NCBI GenBank assembly: GCA_965249725.1
Contig: OZ252251.1
Span: 448,001-512,000, forward strand
Length of the DNA: 64,000 nt
DNA from: Longimicrobiales bacterium
GTDB lineage: Bacteria > Gemmatimonadota > Gemmatimonadetes > Longimicrobiales > Gaopeijiaceae
Reading direction: 5' to 3'
The notes under the pieces were generated by a model. That model was not told the origin of the DNA. It searched no databases and saw only the letters and a program-made list of their open reading frames with translations. Below are positions 749 through 57,086 of this stretch, in pieces; position 1 is the stretch's first letter; every line of letters starts with the position of its first letter. Made by a program: the position numbers and the translations under genes.

Positions 749-2182
749 CTAGTCGGACACCAGCAGTCGAGCGAACGCCAGGTTGAGGTTGAATGCCCTA
801 TGCTCGTTGTGGGCCATGACGGACCGTTCCCAACGGCGCGCATCGGTCACGTTTCCCAAGGCTTCTTCGACCAGCGCCATGAAAGCCATTTCCCATGGGC
901 GCTGAAGGCCGGACTTGAGAAGCATACGTCGGGCCCCTTCCGCGTCACCTTCCACGAGCAGGGCGTATCCCATGAGTGCGAATACGAAGTCGTCGTCCGG
1001 CCCCGCGAGTGCGCCGAATGCGTCAGCGGACCTTCGCGCCGCCTCAGCGTGCCCGGCGATTCCGTGGGCGATGCTCGCTGACGCATGGTGAGCCGCTGTG
1101 GGGTCGCGATCCTTAACTACCGCTGCCAGGTGATCCTGCACCGCTGAAGCATCCCCGAAAAGGGCTTCGGCGATGGCGAGTTCCTGGTGAGCCAACGCGG
1201 CCAAATCCCGGTTGTCGTCTTCCTCGAATCTCTCGGCGGCCGCCTTGAGCGTCTCCAGGCCACGGCGAGCATCGCCTTCCATCAGATACGTGTTGGCCTT
1301 TGCCCTGAGCAGGTTGTTCACGCTTCTCGTCGACCCCACATACGGCACCCCTCGGTCCAGCGCCGCACGGGCCATGTCTCCCTCGCCCGCCAAGCTGTAG
1401 GCCTCGGCGAGCCCCGTGTACCCTCCCGGGAAGGTCGGGTCCAGCTCGAGAGCTCTCGTGTAATGGTCGATCGCGTCCTGGAACAGCCCGCTGAACTGGA
1501 ACAACTCCGCGTACGAGTCGTGTGAGTTCGGATGAAGGGGATCCAACTCCAAGTAGCGCGTCACGCTTCGCCGGGCTCCTGCGGCGTCTCCCATGCTCCA
1601 CTGGGTGTACGCGATCACGTCGGCGCTTGCGGGAAAGTCAGGATGGGCTTCGCGAACCTCGGCCAACGCCGCCAACCGCCGTGGTGACGCGGGCGTTCCC
1701 ACGCTGAGCGCGTGGTACAAAGCGACGTGCGGATCGTCCGGGACCATCGCATACGCCGCACCGTAGAGGGCGCGGGCCGCTTCGGTGTTGCCCAGGAACT
1801 CCTCTCGGATTCCGGAGGCCAGGGTCAACTCTGCTGCGGAGGCGTCCGCGAGGGTTCCCAGAGCATGGGCCATCCGGTCCAAACGTTCCGAGCGTCCAAA
1901 GCCGGGGGCATATCGGGCGTGCATGAACTCGGCCATGCCGAAGTCCGAATCCAGATCCAGCGCGGCTTCCAAGTGCCGGACCGCACGCGTCGTGAAGAAG
2001 TTCTCGATGTCGTCGAAGCCCTTCCAGAAGTGTGCTTTGGCATCGGGCGAAGCGGTGGTCACCGTAAGGACGGCTCCTTCGCCCTTCGACTGGGCGTGGG
2101 CCGCTTCGGTGGCAGGGCCTATCCAGCCCCCCACTATCATCGAGGCTACCAGGCTGGGACGGAAGGCGTGGAAACGGCTCAT
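749..2182 (-). CDS. Secreted tetratricopeptide-repeat protein
   Basis: Signal peptide (AHA-Q); repeated TPR-like segments (ALDLDSDF, YLELDPLHP, ALELDPTFP). Confidence 0.75.
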   Translation of the reverse strand: MSRFHAFRPSLVASMIVGGWIGPATEAAHAQSKGEGAVLTVTTASPDAKAHFWKGFDDIENFFTTRAVRHLEAALDLDSDFGMAEFMHARYAPGFGRSERLDRMAHALGTLADASAAELTLASGIREEFLGNTEAARALYGAAYAMVPDDPHVALYHALSVGTPASPRRLAALAEVREAHPDFPASADVIAYTQWSMGDAAGARRSVTRYLELDPLHPNSHDSYAELFQFSGLFQDAIDHYTRALELDPTFPGGYTGLAEAYSLAGEGDMARAALDRGVPYVGSTRSVNNLLRAKANTYLMEGDARRGLETLKAAAERFEEDDNRDLAALAHQELAIAEALFGDASAVQDHLAAVVKDRDPTAAHHASASIAHGIAGHAEAARRSADAFGALAGPDDDFVFALMGYALLVEGDAEGARRMLLKSGLQRPWEMAFMALVEEALGNVTDARRWERSVMAHNEHRAFNLNLAFARLLVSD

Positions 2183-2282
2183 GAATGGGTCACCTTGTGA
2201 TGGCTATCCCGATCGTCCCTCCTGGGTACTCGAGATAGGTGATCAGTTGCTCACGTTAGAGCTTCCCGCTTCCCGGCGACAG

Positions 2283-2711
2283 CTACTGCGAGGTACCTCT
2301 TGGCTGCGCTTCGGGCTCCGCCGGATCTGGAGAAGTCGGCCGCGTCACGGACCACCCGACGATGCACAGCGCAGCCCACAACAGGCATCCGATGACGAGG
2401 AGTGTCCGAGGCAAGCCTGTCGGCAGGCGGGGGAAGGTGAAGCTATAGAGAGCCACAGGTATCAAGACCGCGGCCGCGAACCAAGGACCGACCTGAATGC
2501 GTCCCTCGGAGTCCCGAGCTTGTTCTGCTAGCGGACCACCCACGACGATCCCTACCAGCGCAACCACGAAAATGCCGAGCGCCGTCCCGACGATCTCGAG
2601 GGCCGAGGTGAAGCCGGGCGGCATCATGAAGACGCCAAGCGCGGTCAGAATCAGCGCGACCCAGGCAGCCTTCCACACTGCCGCACCTAGGGTAGGGTTA
2701 TTCTCAGCCAT
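2283..2711 (-). CDS. Small integral membrane protein
   Basis: About four hydrophobic segments starting MAENNPTLGAAVW; start chosen at ATG 2711. Confidence 0.55.
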   Translation of the reverse strand: MAENNPTLGAAVWKAAWVALILTALGVFMMPPGFTSALEIVGTALGIFVVALVGIVVGGPLAEQARDSEGRIQVGPWFAAAVLIPVALYSFTFPRLPTGLPRTLLVIGCLLWAALCIVGWSVTRPTSPDPAEPEAQPRGTSQ

Positions 2712-2924
2712 CGCAAATAGGGCCCCGAGGCGGTAGCCGTCCGCCTTGTTGAGCCTCCTCCTAACTAGTGATCGAACTGTATAACTCATATCACATAGCT
2801 CTCCTTTTCGCGCCGCTCGACGTTCCACGATATTCTTGCCGATCAGGTCCCACCAGGCCAGAATCGGACTCTGTCAGGCCTTCGCGCCGCCGCGCGAGGA
2901 ACGCACAATCACGGAGTCTCGATC

Positions 2925-4538
2925 ATGAACCGCTTCTTCCGACCCGCCCTCAGCGTCTCTGCTGCGTTCGTACTTCTAGCCGGGCAGGACGCTCGCGCCC
3001 AACAAGTGACTCTAGTCCCGGGCCTCGGCAGCTTGTCGTTCCCCAACTCGGGGGCGCCCGCGGCTCAACAGGACTTCCTCCGCGGAGTCCTCCTCCTGCA
3101 CAGCTTCGAGTACGGGACGGCTGCCGAGGCCTTCCGGCGCGCGCAGCAGGCCGATCCGAGCTTCGCCATGGCCTATTGGGGCGAGGCGATGACCTACACT
3201 CACCCAGTCTGGAATCAGAAGGACGCGGCGGCTGCGCTGGGCGCGCTGGCCCGCCTCGCCCCGACCAGCGCGGAACGGCTGGCCAAGACTGGAACAGAGC
3301 GGGAGCAGGGCTTTCTCCAAGCCGTGGAGACACTCTACGGCCAAGGCCAGAAGGCCTCGCTGGACACCCTCTATTCAGCGGAGATGGGGGCCTTGGCCGC
3401 ACAGTACCCGAAGGACGTCGAGGTCCAGACCTTCTATGCGTTGTCGCTCCTGGGGCTTAGTCAGGGTGATCGCGATGTGCCAACCTACATGGAAGCCGGG
3501 ACCATTGCGCTGGCGGCGTTCCAGGCCAATCCGGATCATCCCGGCGGGGCCCACTACACGATCCACTCCTTCGATGACCCCACGCACGCGATCCTGGCCA
3601 TGCAAGCGGCGCGCACGTACGCCCAGATCGCGCCCGATGCGGCTCACGCCCAGCACATGACCACCCACATCTTTCTTGCCAGGGGAATGTGGGACGACGT
3701 GGTGGAGATCAATATTCAGGCCGACGCTGTGACGGATCGGGCCCGCGCGGCCAACAACCTGCCGCCCACAAACTGCGGCCACTACAACCAGTGGCTCATG
3801 TACGGCTACCAGCAGCAGGGGCGGTATGACGCCGCCGACGCTCTTCTCATGGGGTGTTTCCGGCAGGTGCACGACGAGCGCCTCCCGCTCGCCCAGCGCC
3901 GGACCGCGGCCCGCTCGTACGTGACGATGCGGAGTTCAAACCTTGCCGACACACGTCGCTGGGACGGGAAGCCCGCGTCGTCGGAGATGGATGCCTCGTC
4001 GTTGTCGGTCGGCAGTCAGTTGGCTCAGGCTTGGGGAACGGGACTGGCCGCCCTTCATCGGGGTGACCGGGCCACGGCTGAGCGGATGCACGAGGTGTTG
4101 GTGAAGGACGGTGGGTTGGACGGCGAAACCTACGCACCGGTCTGGGAAGGCACGTTGCACGCCCTCCTCCTCCAGGAAGGGGGTGACGCACCTGGAGCGC
4201 TTATCGCCGCGAAGGCGGCCGCCGACTACGAAGCTTCCCTGCCGGTGGATTTCGGGCCGCCCATCGCGTACAAACCGGCTCGGGAGCTCGAGGGTGAGCT
4301 GCTGCTCGCCAACGGCCGGGCCGAAGACGCCATGGCGGCATTCGAGATGGCCCTGGCTAGGACGCCCAATCGAATCCTTGCGCTCGCCGGATACGCGCGT
4401 GCGGCCAGTGCGGCAGGCCGGACCGGGGTGGCCCAGCGGAGTTATGCGACGCTGGCGGAACTACTTGCCCAAGCGGACGGCGACATGAAGGAGGCTCAGG
4501 AGGTCCGTCAGGGACTGTACCAGCAGGCGCGACGCTAA
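2925..4538 (+). CDS. Secreted TPR-containing protein
   Basis: Signal peptide; FLRGVLLLHSFEY...DPSFAMAYWGEAM, HPGGAHYTIH and HAQHMTTHIF motifs. Confidence 0.75.
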   Translation: MNRFFRPALSVSAAFVLLAGQDARAQQVTLVPGLGSLSFPNSGAPAAQQDFLRGVLLLHSFEYGTAAEAFRRAQQADPSFAMAYWGEAMTYTHPVWNQKDAAAALGALARLAPTSAERLAKTGTEREQGFLQAVETLYGQGQKASLDTLYSAEMGALAAQYPKDVEVQTFYALSLLGLSQGDRDVPTYMEAGTIALAAFQANPDHPGGAHYTIHSFDDPTHAILAMQAARTYAQIAPDAAHAQHMTTHIFLARGMWDDVVEINIQADAVTDRARAANNLPPTNCGHYNQWLMYGYQQQGRYDAADALLMGCFRQVHDERLPLAQRRTAARSYVTMRSSNLADTRRWDGKPASSEMDASSLSVGSQLAQAWGTGLAALHRGDRATAERMHEVLVKDGGLDGETYAPVWEGTLHALLLQEGGDAPGALIAAKAAADYEASLPVDFGPPIAYKPARELEGELLLANGRAEDAMAAFEMALARTPNRILALAGYARAASAAGRTGVAQRSYATLAELLAQADGDMKEAQEVRQGLYQQARR

Positions 4539-43695: not shown

Positions 43696-43814
43696 GGCTC
43701 CAAGTATAGTGGCTCCTTGTCAGGCCGGAAGCGTCGGGGCACCGCCGGCTCATCGCCACCTCGACCCTACTCTGCTATTCTCTTCGCCGTGCATCGACTC
43801 GACCAAGCTACGCC

Positions 43815-44222: not shown

Positions 44223-44405
44223 TACGCACGGTAGCGGGGGTAGCGGATCGCGTCGTTCCAGGCCCGAAGCGCGCCCGAAGGCCGGTACCTTTGTCAACGG
44301 TTTTCACAACGCCCCATTTTCGCGCAGGTCCGGCCCGGACCCCTTCCGCGAGCTCATAGACCGGATCTTCGACGACGCGGGTGCCTGGTGGCTCAGGGGG
44401 CCCGG

Positions 44406-45518
44406 ATGAGCGTCCGGATTCACGTGGGCGACTGCCTAGAGCGGCTGCGCACCCTCCCGGAAGAGTCCGTCCACTGCGTCGTGACGAGCCCGCCGTACTG
44501 GGGGCTGCGGGACTACGGGGTCGCGGGCGCTATCGGGCTGGAGCCGACGTTGCAGGAACACCTAGAAACGATCGTCACCGTGTTCCGCGAGGTGCGGCGA
44601 GTGCTGCGCAAGGACGGCACGCTCTGGCTGAACTACGGGGACTCGTACTCTAGCGGAGATCGTTCGACGCACAGAGCTGGAGCCTCGGACAATAAGGGTC
44701 GTCTCGTACAAAACGGCTTGGCACGCCCCAAGACACCGTCTGGCCTCAAGCCGAAGGACCTCGTGATGATGCCCGCCCGCGTCGCCTTGGCGCTCCAGGC
44801 GGACGGCTGGTGGCTGAGAAGCGAAATCGTGTGGCACAAACCGAACCCGATGCCGGAGAGCGTGAGGGACCGGCCCACCTCGGCGCACGAGAAGCTGTAC
44901 CTGCTCACGAAGGCCGCCCGGTACTTCTACGACGCGGATGCGGTGCGGGTGACATGCAGCCCGAACACACATGCCCGGCGAAAAGGTCGCGAGAGAGTAC
45001 CGCGCAAGGGTTCTGATACGTATGACCGCCGTGCAGGCACATGGAAGGAAAAGAGAACGGTCGCCGAACAGGCAGAAATAGGCGCGAACCTGCGCAACGC
45101 CTGGACGATCCCGACCCACGCATATCCCGGCGCCCATTTCGCCACGTTCCCACCCAAGCTGGTCGAGCCGTGCACCAAGGCGGGCACGAGCGAGAAGGGG
45201 TGTTGCCCGGAATGCGGGACGACCATTGGCTTAAGAACTCGTGTCGCTCCGGTCAAAGCTGCCAGTGGAGCGACCGGCATGAGCGACCCTTCCCCTGACA
45301 ACGCAGTTCCGTTTCTGGCCCATCTGACGCCGCCGAGCGTGCGGGAGATCCTGGCGACCCAAGACTTCGACCCCGGCGAACTCGTCGAGACGGCGCTGGA
45401 ACTCGTGTCCGGCATCGACGTGCGCCACGGCGGCGACGTCCTGCTTTTGGCGCTTGCCATTGGCTGTCTGTGCCAGGGAATCACCACACTCAAGAATGGG
45501 CAGGCCGTTGATGACTGA
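44406..45518 (+). pseudogene. N4/N6 DNA methyltransferase (beta class) lacking SAM-binding motif I, fused in frame to a small phage ORF (45279-45518)
   Basis: GDC, VTSPPY, WHKPNPMPESV and HFATFP present; no DPFxGxGT in any frame. Internal GGAG + ATG at 45279. Confidence 0.7.
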
Positions 45519-47056: not shown

Positions 47057-48103
47057 GTGAGAGCCTACTACAACGAGATCGAGCCGTATGCCGCCGAGTG
47101 GCTGCGCAACCTGATCGCCGAGGGGCTGATCGCGCCTGGCGACGTGGACGAGCGGAGCATCGACGAGGTCGCGCCGGATGAGCTCGAGGGCTACACCCAG
47201 TGTCACTTCTTCGCCGGGATCGGCGGCTGGGGCCACGCGCTCCGGCTCGCCGGATGGCCCGACGAGCGGCCCGTCTGGACCGGCTCCGTTCCGTGTCAGC
47301 CGCTTTCGAGCGCTGGACAGCGACGTGGCCATGCCGATCGAAGACACCTGTGGCCCGCTTTTTTCCGGCTCATCGCCGAGCGCCGGCCTGCAACGCTCTT
47401 TGGAGAGCAGGTTGCGAGCAACCTTGGACGTGAATGGCTCGCCGGAGTACGCGCTGATCTGGAGCACGTGGGATATGCCTGCGGGGCCGCCGATCTGCCG
47501 GCTGCGAGCGTCGGCGCACCGCACATCCGTCAGCGGCTTTGGTGGGTGGCCGACGCCGATGGCCGGGACGCCAGCGCAGAAGGGATACAACGCAGCGGGC
47601 AACACGGATTCCAGCCGGAAGACGACGGACCTGCTGGCGGGCTGGCCGACGCCGAACGCCAGCGACGACAACCAGGACCGGCGAACGATGGCCGGGACCG
47701 TGAGGGAGTGGAATCGAGAGGGGGCGAGCCAATCCAGCCTCCCCTTGGTGGCGAAGATGCTCGCGGGCTGGCCGAGCCCGACGGGAAGCACGGGCGGCCC
47801 GGAGCCGGACGGGCAGACGGGCCGCAAGCTAGCAACCCTCGCGGGCTGGAATACCCCGGTGGCATCGGATCACAATGGCGCGGCGGAGAACAGGAAGGAT
47901 CCATGTGCCACTTTTCAGTTGAGGGATCGAGTTTTTTGGACTGTGCGGACGGAAAAGCGCGGCGCGTTGAATCCGGCACATTCCCGCTGGCCCATGGGGT
48001 TCCCAACCGCGTGGGACGCCTGCGCGCCTACGGCAACGCGATCGTCCCGCAACTCGCCGCGGCGTTCATCCGGGCCTACCGGAACGTGAGCGAGGTGGCG
48101 TGA
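47057..48103 (+). CDS. C5 cytosine DNA methyltransferase, large (alpha) polypeptide, permuted motif order
   Basis: YNEIE, FFAGIGG (I), GSVPCQP (IV), GEQV (VI), PHIRQRLWWVA (VIII), RLRAYGNAIVP (X); motif IX absent. Confidence 0.88.
   Translation: MRAYYNEIEPYAAEWLRNLIAEGLIAPGDVDERSIDEVAPDELEGYTQCHFFAGIGGWGHALRLAGWPDERPVWTGSVPCQPLSSAGQRRGHADRRHLWPAFFRLIAERRPATLFGEQVASNLGREWLAGVRADLEHVGYACGAADLPAASVGAPHIRQRLWWVADADGRDASAEGIQRSGQHGFQPEDDGPAGGLADAERQRRQPGPANDGRDREGVESRGGEPIQPPLGGEDARGLAEPDGKHGRPGAGRADGPQASNPRGLEYPGGIGSQWRGGEQEGSMCHFSVEGSSFLDCADGKARRVESGTFPLAHGVPNRVGRLRAYGNAIVPQLAAAFIRAYRNVSEVA
47178..48089 (+). CDS. Overlapping +1-frame methyltransferase small (beta) polypeptide carrying motif IX
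   Basis: 303 open codons nested in the MTase; GW(P/N)(T/S)P x4 and LNPAHSRWPMGFPTAW (motif IX-like). Start may be ATG 47331. Confidence 0.7.
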   Translation: MSSRATPSVTSSPGSAAGATRSGSPDGPTSGPSGPAPFRVSRFRALDSDVAMPIEDTCGPLFSGSSPSAGLQRSLESRLRATLDVNGSPEYALIWSTWDMPAGPPICRLRASAHRTSVSGFGGWPTPMAGTPAQKGYNAAGNTDSSRKTTDLLAGWPTPNASDDNQDRRTMAGTVREWNREGASQSSLPLVAKMLAGWPSPTGSTGGPEPDGQTGRKLATLAGWNTPVASDHNGAAENRKDPCATFQLRDRVFWTVRTEKRGALNPAHSRWPMGFPTAWDACAPTATRSSRNSPRRSSGPTGT

Positions 48104-51631: not shown

Positions 51632-51801
51632 GACAGCTGACGAGAGGCGAGAGAGCGGAGCTGGTCGGTGACTTGCACACCTACGGGGGAGCGGTGCTCG
51701 TTGCGGGCGGAGCGGGCTGGGCCTATCCACCGGCGGGGTTGATCGTGTTCGGAGCGGTGCTCATGTGGCTCGGACTCTTCTGGCGCAGAGGCTCCGGATG
51801 A
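51628..51801 (+). CDS. Small membrane protein between terL and portal
   Basis: ATGA overlaps both sides; two hydrophobic segments. Confidence 0.65.
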   Translation: MRQLTRGERAELVGDLHTYGGAVLVAGGAGWAYPPAGLIVFGAVLMWLGLFWRRGSG

Positions 51802-53837
51802 TCGCGGAACTGCTGCGCGCCGTGCTGCCGAGCCTCGGGCAGCTCGAAGAGCGCCAGTCCGAAGGCGCCCTGGACGACTTCTGGTACACACCGGCGTGGA
51901 TGCACGGGCGCGGCGGCAAGGTCCAGAGTCCGGAGGACGCACTAGGCCTATCGGCATGGTGGAACGCGATCGCGATCATCGCGGGCACCATGGGCTCACT
52001 GCCTCTGAAGCTGTACAGGAAGGAGGGCGAGCGGCGGGTCGCGGTGCGCGACGATCCACGCTACCGGCTGATGTTCCGGCGTCCGAACGGCTGGCAGACG
52101 GCATTCGAGTGGCGCGAGATGGCGCAGGGCCACCTGCTCGTGCGCGGCAACCACTACTCGCGGATCATACGAGATCAGCTTGGCCGTCCGGTTGCGATCG
52201 TTCCGCTGCATCCCGATCGGGTGCAGCCGGAGGTCCGGGGCGGCGAGATCGCCTACCGGTTCCGTGCACCGAACGGTGGCGACGAGCTCATCCGAATGCG
52301 GGACATGCTCCACCTGCGGGGTCTCGGATCGAACGGGGTCACGGGCTACTCCGTGGTGGCGGTCGCGCGCGAGTCGCTCGGCTACTCGCTACAGCTTGAG
52401 CGGTTCGGCTCGCAGTTCATCGAGAACAAGGGCCGGCCGGGCGGGATCCTGCAATCGGACGAGGTGCTACAGAAGGAGCAGAGGCGCGAGCTCGGCGAGC
52501 AGTGGGACCGGATGTTCCAGGGCGGCGGCCTAGGCAAGACGGCGGTGATCGACTCGGGTCTCAAGTGGCAGCAGGTCGGGTTCTCGAACGAGGACGCGCA
52601 GTGGCTCGGCAGCCGCAGTCACCAGGTGACCGAGATCGCGCGCTGGACGAACCTGCCGCCGCACTTCCTGAAGGATCTCACGCGGGCAACGTTCTCGAAC
52701 ATCGAGGAACAGGCGATCGAGTTCGTCGTCCACACGATACGTCCGTGGGCAGAGCGCTGGGAACAGCGGCTCGACTGCATGCTCCTGAGCGAGGCGGAGC
52801 AGGGCGAGTTCGGGTTCAAGTTCTCGCTCGAAGCGCTGCTTCGCGGCGACGCCGCGAGCCGCGGCGCGTTCTACCAGCTGCTGTTCAACATGGGCGCGAT
52901 CACCCCGAACGAGATCCGTGCGAAGGAAGAGATGAACCCGCACCGGGCGGGTGGCGATCAGGCGTTCGTACAGGTGAACCTGATGCCGCTGGATCAGGCG
53001 GCCGAGCCGTTCGCTGCGGTGGACAGTAGCCTCGATCGAGCGTTGGGTGGGACCGAAGAGGCACGGGTCCTAGCGGCTCCCGCTGCAGAGAGCTTCGAGG
53101 AACGCTCGGTGCGTTCGGTCGCATCCAGACGCCGGATCATGAACACGTACCAGCGGCTCATGGAGGATGCGGCGGGCCGCATCGTCCACCGTGAAGTGCA
53201 GGATCTGCGGCGGATCCTGGACGCGGTGGACGATGGCGATGTGGATGAGTTCCTGCGGCGTCTGGACATCTTCGCGGAGGGCCTGCCGCCGGCGGTTCGC
53301 ACCATCATGGGTCCGGTACTGGCCACCTACATCGACCTGGTCGCCGCCGACGCATCGGATGAGGTCGAGCTCGAAGAGGTCCCCCAGGAGTCCGTTGACA
53401 GATTCCGCTCATCCTACGTCGAGAGATTGGCGGCCGGCCACACGTCGGAGACGGTTGGCAGGCTGCGGAACACGGCACTCGAGACGCAGGGCGACGCGTT
53501 CGCCAACGTGCACCGGATGCTGGACCGTTGGGAGGAGAACCGGGCCGCCGAGATAGGGCTGCGCCATGTGGTGGCGGCCGGGGCGGGTGCGGCGCGCATG
53601 ATCTACACCATGGGCAGGTTCGACACGGTGTGGGTCACGGTCGGCGACAGCTGCCCGTACTGCCGCAAGCTCGCAGGCCGGGCCGTAGGTCCCGGCGAGC
53701 GGTTCCTGAACGCGGGCGACTCGATCGACCCGGAGGACGGCGAGAGCGAGCCGCTCACGGTACGGCGCGCGATCGGCCATCCACCGGCACACAGTGGCTG
53801 CGACTGCACCGTGGCTTCACGGAGGAGGATCATCTGA
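51798..53837 (+). CDS. HK97-family portal protein fused to a C-terminal MuF-like head morphogenesis domain
   Basis: RRPN, GNHY, LHPDRV, LHLRG, FSNIEEQ, TPNEIR; C-terminal WVTVGDSCPYC...HPPAHSGCDC. Confidence 0.9.
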   Translation: MIAELLRAVLPSLGQLEERQSEGALDDFWYTPAWMHGRGGKVQSPEDALGLSAWWNAIAIIAGTMGSLPLKLYRKEGERRVAVRDDPRYRLMFRRPNGWQTAFEWREMAQGHLLVRGNHYSRIIRDQLGRPVAIVPLHPDRVQPEVRGGEIAYRFRAPNGGDELIRMRDMLHLRGLGSNGVTGYSVVAVARESLGYSLQLERFGSQFIENKGRPGGILQSDEVLQKEQRRELGEQWDRMFQGGGLGKTAVIDSGLKWQQVGFSNEDAQWLGSRSHQVTEIARWTNLPPHFLKDLTRATFSNIEEQAIEFVVHTIRPWAERWEQRLDCMLLSEAEQGEFGFKFSLEALLRGDAASRGAFYQLLFNMGAITPNEIRAKEEMNPHRAGGDQAFVQVNLMPLDQAAEPFAAVDSSLDRALGGTEEARVLAAPAAESFEERSVRSVASRRRIMNTYQRLMEDAAGRIVHREVQDLRRILDAVDDGDVDEFLRRLDIFAEGLPPAVRTIMGPVLATYIDLVAADASDEVELEEVPQESVDRFRSSYVERLAAGHTSETVGRLRNTALETQGDAFANVHRMLDRWEENRAAEIGLRHVVAAGAGAARMIYTMGRFDTVWVTVGDSCPYCRKLAGRAVGPGERFLNAGDSIDPEDGESEPLTVRRAIGHPPAHSGCDCTVASRRRII

Positions 53838-54487
53838 TGGAGATGGAAATCAGGCGTCTCGAACACTATCCCGGCGCGCTGTGCGAGATCAGGGCCGGCG
53901 ATGAGGGTGACTCGCCGAAGCTCGCCGGGCTCGGCGCGCCCTACGGGGTCTGGTCGGAGGACTTGGGCGGCGGGTTCGGGAAGTTCCGTGAGCGTTTCGA
54001 GGTCGGCGCATTCCGTTCATCGGTCGCGGCCGACGACATCCGGGCGCTTTATAACCACGAGTCGGGCCAGGTGCTCGGCCGCGTGAGCGCCGGAACGCTG
54101 CGGCTGAACGAGACGGAGAGGGGCATCGAATACGAGATCGACCTGCCGGATACGAGCTTTGCGCGTGACCTGGCGGTCTCCGTCGAGCGGAAGGACGTGA
54201 CGGGCAACTCGTTCGGGTTCACGGTCCCGGATCCGGATACGGACCAGCACTGGGAGGAACGCGACGGCACGGTATGGCGGACGATCACACGGGCCAAGAT
54301 GCTCGAGCTCGGGCCCCAGCCGTTCCCTGCTTATCCGCAGACCGACGTCGAGAATCGATCGCTACGCTCCGTGCTCGAGCAGGCGAGGCGGGCGCTCGGG
54401 CCGCAGGGAACGTCAGCTGAGTTGGCGCTTCGGTTGCTCGAGCTCGATGAGGAGGACGCGGCGCTATATCTTGCGGAAGGGATCTGA
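53837..54487 (+). CDS. HK97-type prohead maturation protease
   Basis: FRE.F..GAF, ALYNH, LGR...GTLRL, SFGF, FPAYPQT. Confidence 0.92.
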   Translation: MEMEIRRLEHYPGALCEIRAGDEGDSPKLAGLGAPYGVWSEDLGGGFGKFRERFEVGAFRSSVAADDIRALYNHESGQVLGRVSAGTLRLNETERGIEYEIDLPDTSFARDLAVSVERKDVTGNSFGFTVPDPDTDQHWEERDGTVWRTITRAKMLELGPQPFPAYPQTDVENRSLRSVLEQARRALGPQGTSAELALRLLELDEEDAALYLAEGI

Positions 54488-54574
54488 ATGCACCACGACA
54501 TCCGGTGTCCAGTAGCCCAGGGGGGTTGACCTTTTCTTGAGAGCAGGTTAGAGGTTAGAGGACAATCGAAGGTA

Positions 54575-54830
54575 GGTGTCCGAGCTACGGCCCAAGGGCC
54601 TGGGCTCGAGGGACATCCGGTAGGACAGGCAGAACGCAGCGAGAGACGTTCGGGCGGGCCCGGCGGTGAGCTGCAGCGGTAAGTGGTAAGAACGGTGCCT
54701 GATCTACGGCCAGCGGGCCTGGGTCCCACGAAGCATCCGGTAGCGCGGACATGACGCAGCGAGAGACGCTCGGGCGGGCCCGGCGGTGAGTTGCCGACAC
54801 GACCACGGAATAGGCCGTGGTGTCGGTGGC
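54575..54830 (+). ncRNA. Candidate tandem structured RNA (two ~100-nt units) in capsid gene leader
   Basis: Units at 54575-54674 and 54694-54794. 41-nt core is 39/41 identical and the differences preserve base pairing. Followed by a hairpin at 54790-54830. Confidence 0.6.
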
Positions 54831-54901
54831 TTCTATGCCAGGCTGGCCCGGTTTTCGTTTGAGGCCCCATCCGGCACCACACAGCCGGAGGGGCTTTTCA
54901 A

Positions 54902-56272
54902 ATGAATCGGGAACAACTGCTAAGGCGCTACGAGGAGCTCGGCGCCGAGATCCGGGCGCTCATTACCGAGGCCCCCGAGGGGGTGATCGACGAGGAGCGC
55001 CAGTCCCAGATCGAGGAGCTGAAGGCAACCCGCAAGGGTGTGTTCGCATCGATCCAGGAGCTGGACGCACTCGAGACGGAAGCGCGGGAGCTGGGCACGC
55101 CCCGGAGCTCTGCAGGCCCGGGAGACGGTCTAGCGCCGGGCGACGAGCAGGCGGACACACGCGCGGTCCGGGTCGGGCAACCCCGTGAGGGCGAGGCGCC
55201 GTTCGGGTCGTTCGGCGAGCAGCTGCGAGCTGTAGCGGCGGCGTTCTCGCCGGGCGGCAGTGAATCGATCGATCCGCGGCTACTCCGGGTCCATGAGGAA
55301 GAGAGCGAACGGCGGGCTGCGACGGGGATGTCGCAGACCGATCCGTCGTCGGCGGGCTACCTGGTGGCGCCCGAGTTCTCGCAGCTGATCTTCGACGGTC
55401 TGAAGGAGGACTCCGAGGCGCTGATCGGGCTGACCGACCAGCAGCGGGTGACCGGCGAGTCGCTGACGTTCAACGCGAACGCCGAGACGTCGCGCGCTAC
55501 GGGCTCGAGGTGGGGCGGCGTCCAGGGCTACTGGATCGCGGAAGCGGACGAGATCGCGTCGAGCCGTCCGAAGTTCCGGCAGGTGAAGATCGAGCCGCAC
55601 GAGCTCGCGGTACTGGTCTACACGACGGACAAGCTGCTCCGCAACTCGCCCGCCTCACTCGGCCAGCACGTCGAGCGTGCGGCCCGCGACGAGATCAACT
55701 TCATGACCGGTGACGCGATCGTGAACGGCTCGGGTGCGGGCAAGCCGCTCGGGATCCTGCAGTCAGGCTCACTGATCACGATCTCGAAGGAGACCTCGCA
55801 GGAGACAGCCACGATCGTCCACGCGAACATCTCGAAGATGTGGGCGCGGCTCCATCCGCGCTCGCGTGCGAGGGCCGTGTGGCTGCACAACGTGGACATC
55901 GAGCCTGAGCTCGACAACCTGTTCATGCCCGTGACGAACGTGGCGGGCGCAGAGAACGTGGGCGGGCTCACGAACCTGCTGTTCAACCAGGGGCAGCGCA
56001 CGCTGAAGGGCCGTCCGCTGATCGCGTCCGAGTACTGCGCGACGCTCGGCGCCATGGGCGACCTCATCCTCTGGGATCCGACGGCCTACCTGACCGGGAT
56101 CCGCGAAGGGATCCGGACCGCGATGTCCATGCACGTCCGGTTCGTCTACGCGGAGACCGCTTTCCGCTTCATGTACGAGATCGACGGCCAGCCGTGGCTC
56201 AACGCGGCGCTCACACCGTTCAACGGCTCGAACACGCTGAGCACGCACGTCGCACTCGCAGCGCGCTCCTAA
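54902..56272 (+). CDS. Major capsid protein, HK97 fold with N-terminal delta-like coiled coil
   Basis: AGYLVAPEF, WIAEA, GSGAGKPLGI, TLKGRP, ETAFRF; GGAGG RBS. Confidence 0.93.
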   Translation: MNREQLLRRYEELGAEIRALITEAPEGVIDEERQSQIEELKATRKGVFASIQELDALETEARELGTPRSSAGPGDGLAPGDEQADTRAVRVGQPREGEAPFGSFGEQLRAVAAAFSPGGSESIDPRLLRVHEEESERRAATGMSQTDPSSAGYLVAPEFSQLIFDGLKEDSEALIGLTDQQRVTGESLTFNANAETSRATGSRWGGVQGYWIAEADEIASSRPKFRQVKIEPHELAVLVYTTDKLLRNSPASLGQHVERAARDEINFMTGDAIVNGSGAGKPLGILQSGSLITISKETSQETATIVHANISKMWARLHPRSRARAVWLHNVDIEPELDNLFMPVTNVAGAENVGGLTNLLFNQGQRTLKGRPLIASEYCATLGAMGDLILWDPTAYLTGIREGIRTAMSMHVRFVYAETAFRFMYEIDGQPWLNAALTPFNGSNTLSTHVALAARS

Positions 56273-56289
56273 AGGGGAGGACTGGAACC

Positions 56290-56787
56290 ATGGCTGAGAA
56301 GTTTCTGCAACACGCGACGATCGAGTCCGCGTTCGTGCCTGTGGACATGTCCACGGCGGCGAACACGGGGGACTGGGTCGGGCTGGAGAACTACGAACGT
56401 GTGGTCGCTGTGCTCTTCGGTGCCGTCGGCACCGCAGGCGACGATCCTGCGTTCAAGCTGCAGCAGGCGACGGACGCCTCGGGCACGGGCGCGAAGGATC
56501 TGGAGTTCACGACGATCCACGAGAAGGTCGGCACGCTGACGGATGTGACGGCCTGGACCCGTACGTCACAGGCTGCGGGCACGAGCTACACGAACGCGGC
56601 CAGCGCCGAGAGCCAGAAGCTCATCGCCGTCGAGGTGCAGGCGGACGAGCTCGACGTCGATGGCGGGTTCACGCACATCCAACTGAGCGTGGCGGAGGTG
56701 GGCGACAATGGCCAGATCGGCTGCGGGTTCTACATCCTGCTCGAGCCGCGCTATCCGCAGGCGAGCGTCGAGAGCGCACTGGCCTAA
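56290..56787 (+). CDS. Putative head decoration/cement protein
   Basis: Beta-rich 165-aa protein immediately after capsid with strong RBS. Confidence 0.55.
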   Translation: MAEKFLQHATIESAFVPVDMSTAANTGDWVGLENYERVVAVLFGAVGTAGDDPAFKLQQATDASGTGAKDLEFTTIHEKVGTLTDVTAWTRTSQAAGTSYTNAASAESQKLIAVEVQADELDVDGGFTHIQLSVAEVGDNGQIGCGFYILLEPRYPQASVESALA

Positions 56788-57086
56788 TGCGAGTGCTCAT
56801 GAGACACGGCTCGAAGCGGGGCCAGGTCCACGAGGTGCCGCTGCATGTGGCGCGCCGGATGCTGGATGCCGGTGTCGCGGAGCGGGTCCGCGACGATCTG
56901 CGGATCACCGACATCGAGCGGGCCGTGCACACGGTGCCCGAGACGGCCGAGACGCCGGATCTGGCGGGTCTCACGATCCGGCAGCTGGCCGAGATCGCTG
57001 CGGCCCGTGGGATCGTGGTGAGCCGGGGCGACGGCAAGGCGGGTCGACCGACGCGGGCGGACTATGTGCGTCACCTGGGAGCGTGA
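56787..57086 (+). CDS. Small phage protein with HeH/Rho-N-like C-terminus
   Basis: TAATG coupling; LTIRQLAEIAAARGI...TRADYV pattern. Confidence 0.55.
   Translation: MRVLMRHGSKRGQVHEVPLHVARRMLDAGVAERVRDDLRITDIERAVHTVPETAETPDLAGLTIRQLAEIAAARGIVVSRGDGKAGRPTRADYVRHLGA

Follow-up and report, generated by a model that had tools for sequence, protein, structure and literature searches.

The leader of the major capsid gene in a prophage of a Longimicrobiales bacterium probably belongs to a real and undescribed RNA switch family, which precedes phage major capsid genes and is duplicated in this prophage. A cis-acting structured RNA with switch architecture had been proposed for this place in a first-pass annotation of the window (the whole stretch of 64,000 nucleotides analysed here, G000:C1:448001-512000; the protease gene, the leader and the capsid gene lie on its plus strand), and the proposal is supported by homologues in the same genomic position and by covariation among them. 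Alignment and computed folding point to a conserved fold 5´ of mutually exclusive helices over a terminator or ribosome site, which is one general hallmark of a riboswitch, another being direct, protein-free binding of a small molecule. We consider it highly likely that the leader is a real switch and that its default state is OFF.

From about position 43,800 onward, the window is a portion of a temperate siphovirus-like prophage. Inside the window it carries genes for an HNH protein, the small and the large terminase subunit, a portal protein fused to an additional C-terminal domain, the S78 prohead protease and the HK97-type capsid; tail, lysis, repressor and integrase genes, read by eye, follow past the window end. 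The prophage spans about 491,800-533,400 of G000:C1, that is, window position 43,800 to beyond its end. Its early region appears by eye to be split by integration, methylase, replication and late genes lying on one side and repressor, recombination, excisionase and integrase genes on the other, and an IS element and a HicAB-like pair are located behind the lysis genes (by eye). Two DNA-methyltransferase-like ORFs (44388-45518 and 47057-48103, by eye) belong to the early region, the latter being overlapped in a different frame by another long ORF (47178-48089). The fused C-terminal domain of the portal gene product (51765-53837) contains Cys/His motifs and gives weak matches to PHROG head morphogenesis and Pfam VG15. 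Elsewhere on the host chromosome, 19 tRNA genes are clustered on one strand (G000:C3 1,903,222-1,906,030), and the 16S gene of the host appears Gemmatimonadota-like. The HK97-type prohead protease gene (Peptidase_S78; 53837-54487, start codon placed by reading frame) matches Pfam PF04586 with E 2e-35 over 53840-54487, and the HK97-type major capsid gene, the predicted target of control (54902-56272), matches PF05065 with E 3e-36.

Between the protease stop codon (54487) and the capsid ATG (54902) lies a gap of 414 nt, as originally described. The surrounding operon had been called overlap-packed, which is roughly right: seven of nine other late-gene gaps measure 29 nt or less, with starts chosen by the analyst. 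The gap contains two repeat units spaced by 119-120 nt (repeat families of 87% identity over 61 nt and 80% over 30 nt) with a core identical in 39 of 41 positions. CATCCGGTAG is unchanged in both units, and its partial copy at 54497 is present as well; all these earlier readings were reproduced. Compared by blastn, the units are 80% identical over about 100 nt (E 3e-19). Unit 1 (54575-54674), an extra copy of the sensing domain, is composed of domain 1 (54575-54632) and domain 2 with P4 (54636-54674), has no helix-A partner of its own, and reaches a covariance-model score of 84 bits by construction. In unit 2, domain 1 (54694-54752) has a 13-bp P1 closing a three-way junction, a 4-bp tetraloop hairpin and a UGGG...CAUCCG stem with an AU bulge; domain 2 (54756-54794) consists of P4 (GCAGC/GUUGC), an internal loop and an apical hairpin, and would be the element to be held for ON. 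No further copies of the unit were found elsewhere in the host genome.

The element had been described as a tandem RNA, and the tandem as its essential feature is not borne out. All four homologous loci that we identified contain a single unit, and the tandem copy is particular to the lineage of the window. Folded singly, the two window units are no better than shuffled sequences (z -0.16 and +1.47), and the folding signal of the gap (z -3.39) comes from the platform downstream of them (z -4.93). This lack of unusual folding energy, together with the single units of relatives, would agree with a neutrally duplicated stretch of ordinary intergenic DNA that precedes a plain terminator or Shine-Dalgarno hairpin. 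That reading is nevertheless hardly credible: homologues with covariation exist in five diverged phages, which already largely refutes it for the motif, and it sits badly with strain variation. When strain contigs (four runs, one sample) were compared over 54200-55200, none of the 40 listed substitutions fell in 54541-54833, where about 12 would be expected if they were uniformly distributed; 88 further differences exist beyond the listed substitutions, and reads fitting both unit copies may bias the count. Two of the listed changes are in the outer stem of hairpin B and both keep its pairing, most of the listed indels are in loops, spacers or the bulge, and among the listed joints from the four runs of this sample none skips one unit. 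Strain variation in this one sample gives weak support. One low-depth strain contig skips 96 nt at 54465-54562, which would remove most of the promoter region.

Homologues exist in related phages. At four further loci (L154, L281, L092 and L405), the motif lies downstream of a protease gene and directly before an HK97-type capsid gene. L154 was the one true hit among 19 matches of a DNA pattern search, and L405 came from a relaxed pattern scan of metagenome contigs, with at least two true hits among the 120 matches listed. Conservation of these two is partly built in, because both were found by patterns drawn from the motif. L281 and L092 were found through similarity of their capsid and protease proteins and not through the motif, which was then recognised in L281 by a profile of the window and L154 copies (E 1.3e-9) and in L092 by eye. 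With the window protease, those of L154, L281 and L092 share 47-53% identity, and the protein database holds capsid proteins 91-92% identical to the window capsid. L405 carries an extra ORF of 162 amino acids between protease and leader (168-656; no PHROG match, weak Pfam hit), and we conclude from this that the leader stays with the capsid gene. In L281, the AUG behind hairpin B (2811 onward; G733 2093-3739) yields a capsid protein extended by about 85 residues at its N-terminus; translation may begin further downstream, or the extension may be real.

The leader follows one branch of the protease tree. This tree was built by a quick method from 54 rows, namely selected loci with a fused portal tail and 16 database proteins. 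The window protease belongs to a clade of 18 rows (SH-aLRT 99) that tracks with the leader, which is found in all five clade members with locus DNA and in none of the 34 loci outside the clade. Four rows of the clade come with locus DNA; P0157 contains the L405 protease tail letter for letter, and the other 13 rows are protein only. Among related capsid genes outside the clade, those of L021, L027, L029, L031 and L066 are preceded by long non-coding leaders of other kinds. Several of these end in terminator-like stems, and L021 and L027 have one leader in common. These are possibly further leader families.

Wider searches gave few true copies. There were no matches to the exact core pattern in viral contigs nor to a longer pattern in metagenome contigs, and other relaxed patterns returned no true hit among 120 matches listed, two among eight and three among twelve, the rest being chance matches. 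Nothing real was found by blastn in named phages and plasmids, and among the named phages listed protease identity was 42% or less. A DNA search of 150 related genomes was without a real match. Searching three overlapping samples of 150 related genomes with an RNA model, in which the best 25 candidates per genome were scored, we found no host-chromosome copy; two weak hits of 27-28 bits each lay within a long ORF. The motif is absent from 36 capsid loci of named genomes and from four protease loci of the phylum sample. Among the sequencing runs searched, no RNA run was listed as carrying the element.

Next, we examined how the sensing domain is folded. The family fold was taken from single-sequence folds of the relatives and then counted on an alignment of six units from five loci. 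It comprises the 13-bp P1, the 4-bp tetraloop hairpin, the UGGG/CAUCCG stem with its AU bulge, a three-base linker and the 5-bp P4. Covariation is present: over the six units, 92.7% of 165 cells are paired, 16 of 29 pairs show two-sided changes, and none of 500 shuffles scored as high, in a control that ignores kinship and for a structure derived from the same sequences. When the partners are slid, only 30-44% of cells are paired. Two-sided changes affect ten of the 13 pairs in P1; P4 is paired throughout (100%), with two-sided changes in two of its five pairs. L154 is devoid of the UGGG/CAUCCG stem and has a four-base bulge instead.

The 5´ helix that had been read from the window units (GGTGT/ACATC versus GGTGC/GCATC) is not kept in the relatives, with 70.4% of cells paired and 207 of 500 shuffles as high, although it is energetically favoured in unit 1. 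The family fold is less stable than the local minimum by 10.9 kcal/mol in unit 1 and by 7.4 kcal/mol in unit 2, and for this reason the window lineage may have a second fold of domain 1 or need help in folding. Invariant bases are the 5´ GG, the AC linker, the G-C base of P4 and a G two bases later; few unpaired bases are invariant.

Downstream of the sensing domain, the alternative pairing of 54790-54799 with 54821-54830 that had been noticed in the first pass does exist, and in this part the claim of a switch architecture stands; what had been missed is the second half of the switch, namely anti-B and, beyond the stretch then described, the Shine-Dalgarno hairpin (54861-54897). Aligned, all five leaders share three competing pairings. 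Helix A, assigned to the OFF state (54790-54830), joins the 3´ strand of P4 and its tail (54790-54799) to a downstream strand (54821-54830) with an inner hairpin between them, and invades P4; 96% of its cells are paired over the five loci, and in computed folds it reaches further into domain 2. Anti-B, assigned to the ON state (54819-54878), pairs 54819-54826 with 54871-54878 (97.5% of cells paired, five loci) and shows a C-G to U-A change in L092. Hairpin B (54861-54898; -17.5 to -30.3 kcal/mol, five loci) covers the Shine-Dalgarno sequence GGAGG (54887-54891) and is followed by four U in the window; in the five loci, 3-5 U and the AUG follow it. In L092, a single hairpin-B base has changed along with its partners in both alternative pairings, anti-B and hairpin B. 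Taken alone, helix A and inner B do not stand out clearly from the shuffle control (81 of 500, three measures).

The minimum-energy state is helix A with hairpin B, that is OFF, in all five leaders, the ON state being 8-30 kcal/mol higher. Since OFF is the minimum in every case and yet the gene encodes the major capsid protein, the other state must be reached in vivo. According to the computed folds, the probability that the Shine-Dalgarno sequence is unpaired is 0-0.17 without constraint and 0.41-1.0 with P4 and anti-B forced. In folds of the growing transcript, P4 forms first (probability 0.94-1.0) in four of five loci and persists until the invading strand appears. When P4 is held in these nascent folds, the anti-B probability of L281, L092 and L405 climbs to at least 0.82, having been at most 0.06; L154 attains 0.27-0.93 without any clamp. 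In the window copy, anti-B stays at 0.04-0.16 when P4 alone is held and reaches 0.83-0.89 once two more bases are shielded. The complete hairpin B wins in four of five leaders even with P4 held, L405 being mixed. Because hairpin B wins at equilibrium in spite of a held P4, the control would be kinetic.

One rival reading needs no ligand. P4 and anti-B might form briefly, ribosomes load, and the RNA then collapse to OFF, capsid being dosed per transcript; metastable states of mRNA are described in the accessible part of PMC6733600. The early appearance of P4 in four loci, the unaided anti-B of L154 and the victory of hairpin B at equilibrium all agree with such a folding timer. We still regard it as distinctly unlikely. 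In four of the five loci, helix A is already the favoured pairing 21-41 nt before transcription reaches the anti-B partner; domain 1, which is outside the cascade and yet keeps its length and junction sequence, is left unexplained, and so is a second sensing unit devoid of a platform.

Transcription of the leader may start close to it. Two promoter-like sites precede the motif (54526-54566): TTGACC (54526)-17-TAGAGG (54549), seen by eye, and TTGAGA (54537)-18-GACAAT (54561). The latter, already pointed out in the first pass, is confirmed as the one promoter-like site in 53500-56500, against 0.2 +/- 0.5 in shuffled sequences. A pattern noticed after the fact, TTGANN-18-TAGNNT, stands 17-21 nt before the motif in L154, L281 and L092, with weaker matches in the window and L405; of all these, the -10 site of the window fits least well. 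Sites of the form TTGAC-N-TAGNNT in the host genome peak at spacings of 17-18 nt (19 and 10 sites, versus 0-9 at other spacings), and this peak indicates that they represent a real promoter type in this host.

With a promoter at one end and a possible terminator, hairpin B, at the other, the leader may also be viewed as a constitutive short RNA of about 200 nt, the terminator being passed once polymerase has been modified by a Q-like phage antiterminator or, in put-like fashion, by the RNA itself, and the structures serving as polymerase contact or pause elements. HK022 put-type RNA binds RNA polymerase and suppresses distant terminators, and we take the two helical domains with their short linker to recall it. 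Runs of 3-5 U after hairpin B would also suit termination, although they are short and lie in the spacer between Shine-Dalgarno and AUG, and the terminator scan did not call hairpin B in the window. The order of promoter, leader, terminator and capsid matches that of the Bartonella GTA capsid operon opened by a Q-like antiterminator, as far as the available part of bioRxiv 2024.11.20.624540 describes it. A mechanism at the polymerase level, however, does not need a conserved anti-B with compensatory change, and no early gene is common to the window prophage and G733 (about 55% complete). We judge this reading unlikely.

We return to the default-OFF switch and to what may open it. Our preferred reading, held with slightly less than even confidence and resting on the modelled cascade, is a leader whose fate is decided kinetically and which a factor acting in trans opens, a late or head protein of the phage being the most likely candidate; to a phage protein as trigger we give a little over half of the weight granted to the default-OFF switch as such. 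A phage late or head protein is favoured because the leader tracks the head-module clade, because packaging and head genes are all that the window prophage and G733 have in common, because no host copy was found in the related genomes searched, and because few unpaired bases are invariant. Restriction to the clade fits simple co-inheritance equally well. Among candidate partners, the fused portal tail was rejected, since 42 of 115 protease loci (counting duplicates) have it and almost none of these carries the leader. A 99-amino-acid ORF two genes past the capsid (56787-57086) is covered by a weak tblastn match from G733. As an RNA binder it has no Pfam match, and an Atlas lead only, Rho_N occurring in 20% of the members of a 0.85 cluster. 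With these two examined, no candidate RNA-binding protein for the leader was found.

The main rival to a protein is a small molecule, since the invariant bases are located precisely at the entry point of helix A. Bound at the junction of domains 1 and 2, a host metabolite or nucleotide signal would block invasion and turn capsid on, the leader being a new riboswitch that reads host state. Shielding two bases past P4 suffices to flip the window copy in computation, one leader serves phages that have no early genes in common, and riboswitches are known in which two sensing domains in tandem act on a single platform. What makes this rather unlikely is that the leader was found only before capsid genes and never before host genes in the genomes searched, and that it has few invariant unpaired bases and no conserved loop-loop contact.

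Within this small-molecule reading, we compared the leader with the c-di-GMP-I (GEMM) riboswitch, of which it might be a distant derivative with another ligand. Both consist of two side-by-side helical domains with blocks in the same order (5´ GG, ACGYA linker, 3´ YURCYG), the 3´ block being invaded, and this order follows the c-di-GMP-I core G20; C44-G45-A47; C92 (numbering of PMC3764141, in its accessible part). In c-di-GMP-I, according to the same part of that source, a GNRA tetraloop docks in a receptor on the second helix, and the A47-A48-A49 linker and unpaired C92 form the pocket. The leader, in contrast, has neither GNRA loop nor receptor block (hairpin loops GGCG, GGCG, AACG, AGCG, CAAG and AGCG). 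Its linker has one A instead of three, paired in P4 in all six units, the matching C is inside P4 in an invariant G-C pair, and there is no consistent closing P1. The models match in neither direction: a search with RF01051 (gathering cut-off 35 bits) matched neither the window region nor L154, L281, L092 or L405 up to E 10, and the leader model gives at most 9.3 bits on 15 loci with real c-di-GMP-I RNAs. Tested for kinship of the 3´ domain to c-di-GMP-I, one of six units is above dinucleotide shuffles (p 0.01, uncorrected), and a domain 2 profile ranks a real GEMM site only 14th in 15 loci. Membership of the c-di-GMP-I family was rejected, and a distant derivation with another ligand we hold to be very unlikely. 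RF01051 passes its cut-off in 95 of 151 genomes of the phylum sample and has no match in the host genome G000; in the phylum sample these riboswitches often occur several close together, and they are present in none of 16 sampled genomes of the host family.

Other known kinds of leader were considered as well. Novelty had been suspected from the outset, and Rfam scans of the window region and the four homologues indeed gave chance hits only. A leader-peptide attenuator was rejected: a 12-codon ORF at 54751 exists in unit 2 only, and by eye the frame stops right after the linker in L281, L092 and L405. An antisense-controlled leader of the C4/P4 type was rejected as well, since exact complementarity within the window prophage and within G733 was limited to scattered matches of 11-14 nt without a common place. 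Hammerhead, HDV-like, twister, twister-sister, pistol, hatchet and hairpin ribozymes were dismissed, there being no Rfam match on either strand, and after comparison by eye with their consensus.

ON-type riboswitches and attenuators are built as cascades of aptamer, anti-antiterminator, antiterminator and terminator or Shine-Dalgarno helix. The leader resembles them in its folded 5´ domain, the final helix of which is in competition with a strand further downstream, in its exclusive helices, and in the predicted OFF default and kinetic decision; it differs in having no Rfam family, in standing before a phage major capsid gene, and in that its candidate ligand may be a protein. In phage Mu, the Com protein binds the leader RNA of mom and opens a structure hiding the translation start. 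That gene is a different one, and here the RNA domain is much larger, a three-step cascade is predicted, and no Com-like partner was found. At pR´ of lambda, a comparable promoter and attenuating leader are opened by the phage factor Q. The closest regulatory parallel in the literature covered is the Bartonella GTA, where a constitutive promoter and attenuating leader ahead of capsid genes are likewise opened by a phage-derived factor: in the accessible part of bioRxiv 2024.11.20.624540, the bgtA-K leader is opened by the BrrG antiterminator, acting on polymerase. Both this system and lambda pR´/Q act on polymerase at the promoter, whereas here a conserved alternative pairing is built into the RNA itself, and the leader is found within the head module. 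PMC10690425 gives six candidate structured RNAs (DNAVirus_1143, 1925, 6842, 6891, 8491 and 933) at no more than 25 nt from an HK97 capsid or protease gene; they measure 61-104 nt, and no switch is described for them in the part of the source available. The word 'capsid' does not occur in the main text of PMC5737381, and no description of the motif was found in a literature search that largely lacked subscription papers.

Conservation, position, the pairings and their computed energies are observed; building on them, we propose the following course of events, in which the transcription start, switching in vivo, output level and identity of the factor are all inferred. The capsid transcript would start with the leader, from a host sigma-70-type promoter between the protease and capsid genes, and domains 1 and 2 would fold first on the nascent RNA. 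With nothing bound, the downstream strand would use the 5-nt tail after P4 as a toehold and unzip domain 2, forming helix A. Hairpin B would then bury the capsid Shine-Dalgarno sequence and may also stop transcription at the short U run; this OFF state would be suited to the lysogen. A factor clamping the junction of domains 1 and 2 and the base of P4 would keep the downstream strand free during transcription. The freed strand could pair with the emerging 5´ side of hairpin B, and either the ribosome site would open or polymerase would read through, giving ON. If the clamp is a protein of the phage late or head module, bulk capsid synthesis would follow only after expression of the upstream packaging genes. 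The extra unit of the window may add binding strength, or it may be a recent, still-selected duplicate.

Activation of phage late genes is generally ascribed to promoters or to antitermination at the level of polymerase. A conserved RNA switch dedicated to the major capsid gene would, if true, be an added control point inside the head module. The leader, about 200 nt long and available in five natural versions with exact ON and OFF mutations predicted, can be put to experiment at once. Depending on the trigger, a phage late protein would gain a new role in RNA binding, or riboswitches a new ligand. At the far end of what may be expected, and with low probability, stands a new riboswitch class, here in tandem form, by which temperate phages would couple capsid synthesis to a small molecule or signalling nucleotide of the host, or else an assembly checkpoint at the RNA level, with capsid translation licensed by a head protein. 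For the prophage itself, the switch would mean that a strong capsid promoter is kept silent in the lysogen and that the supply of capsid is timed.
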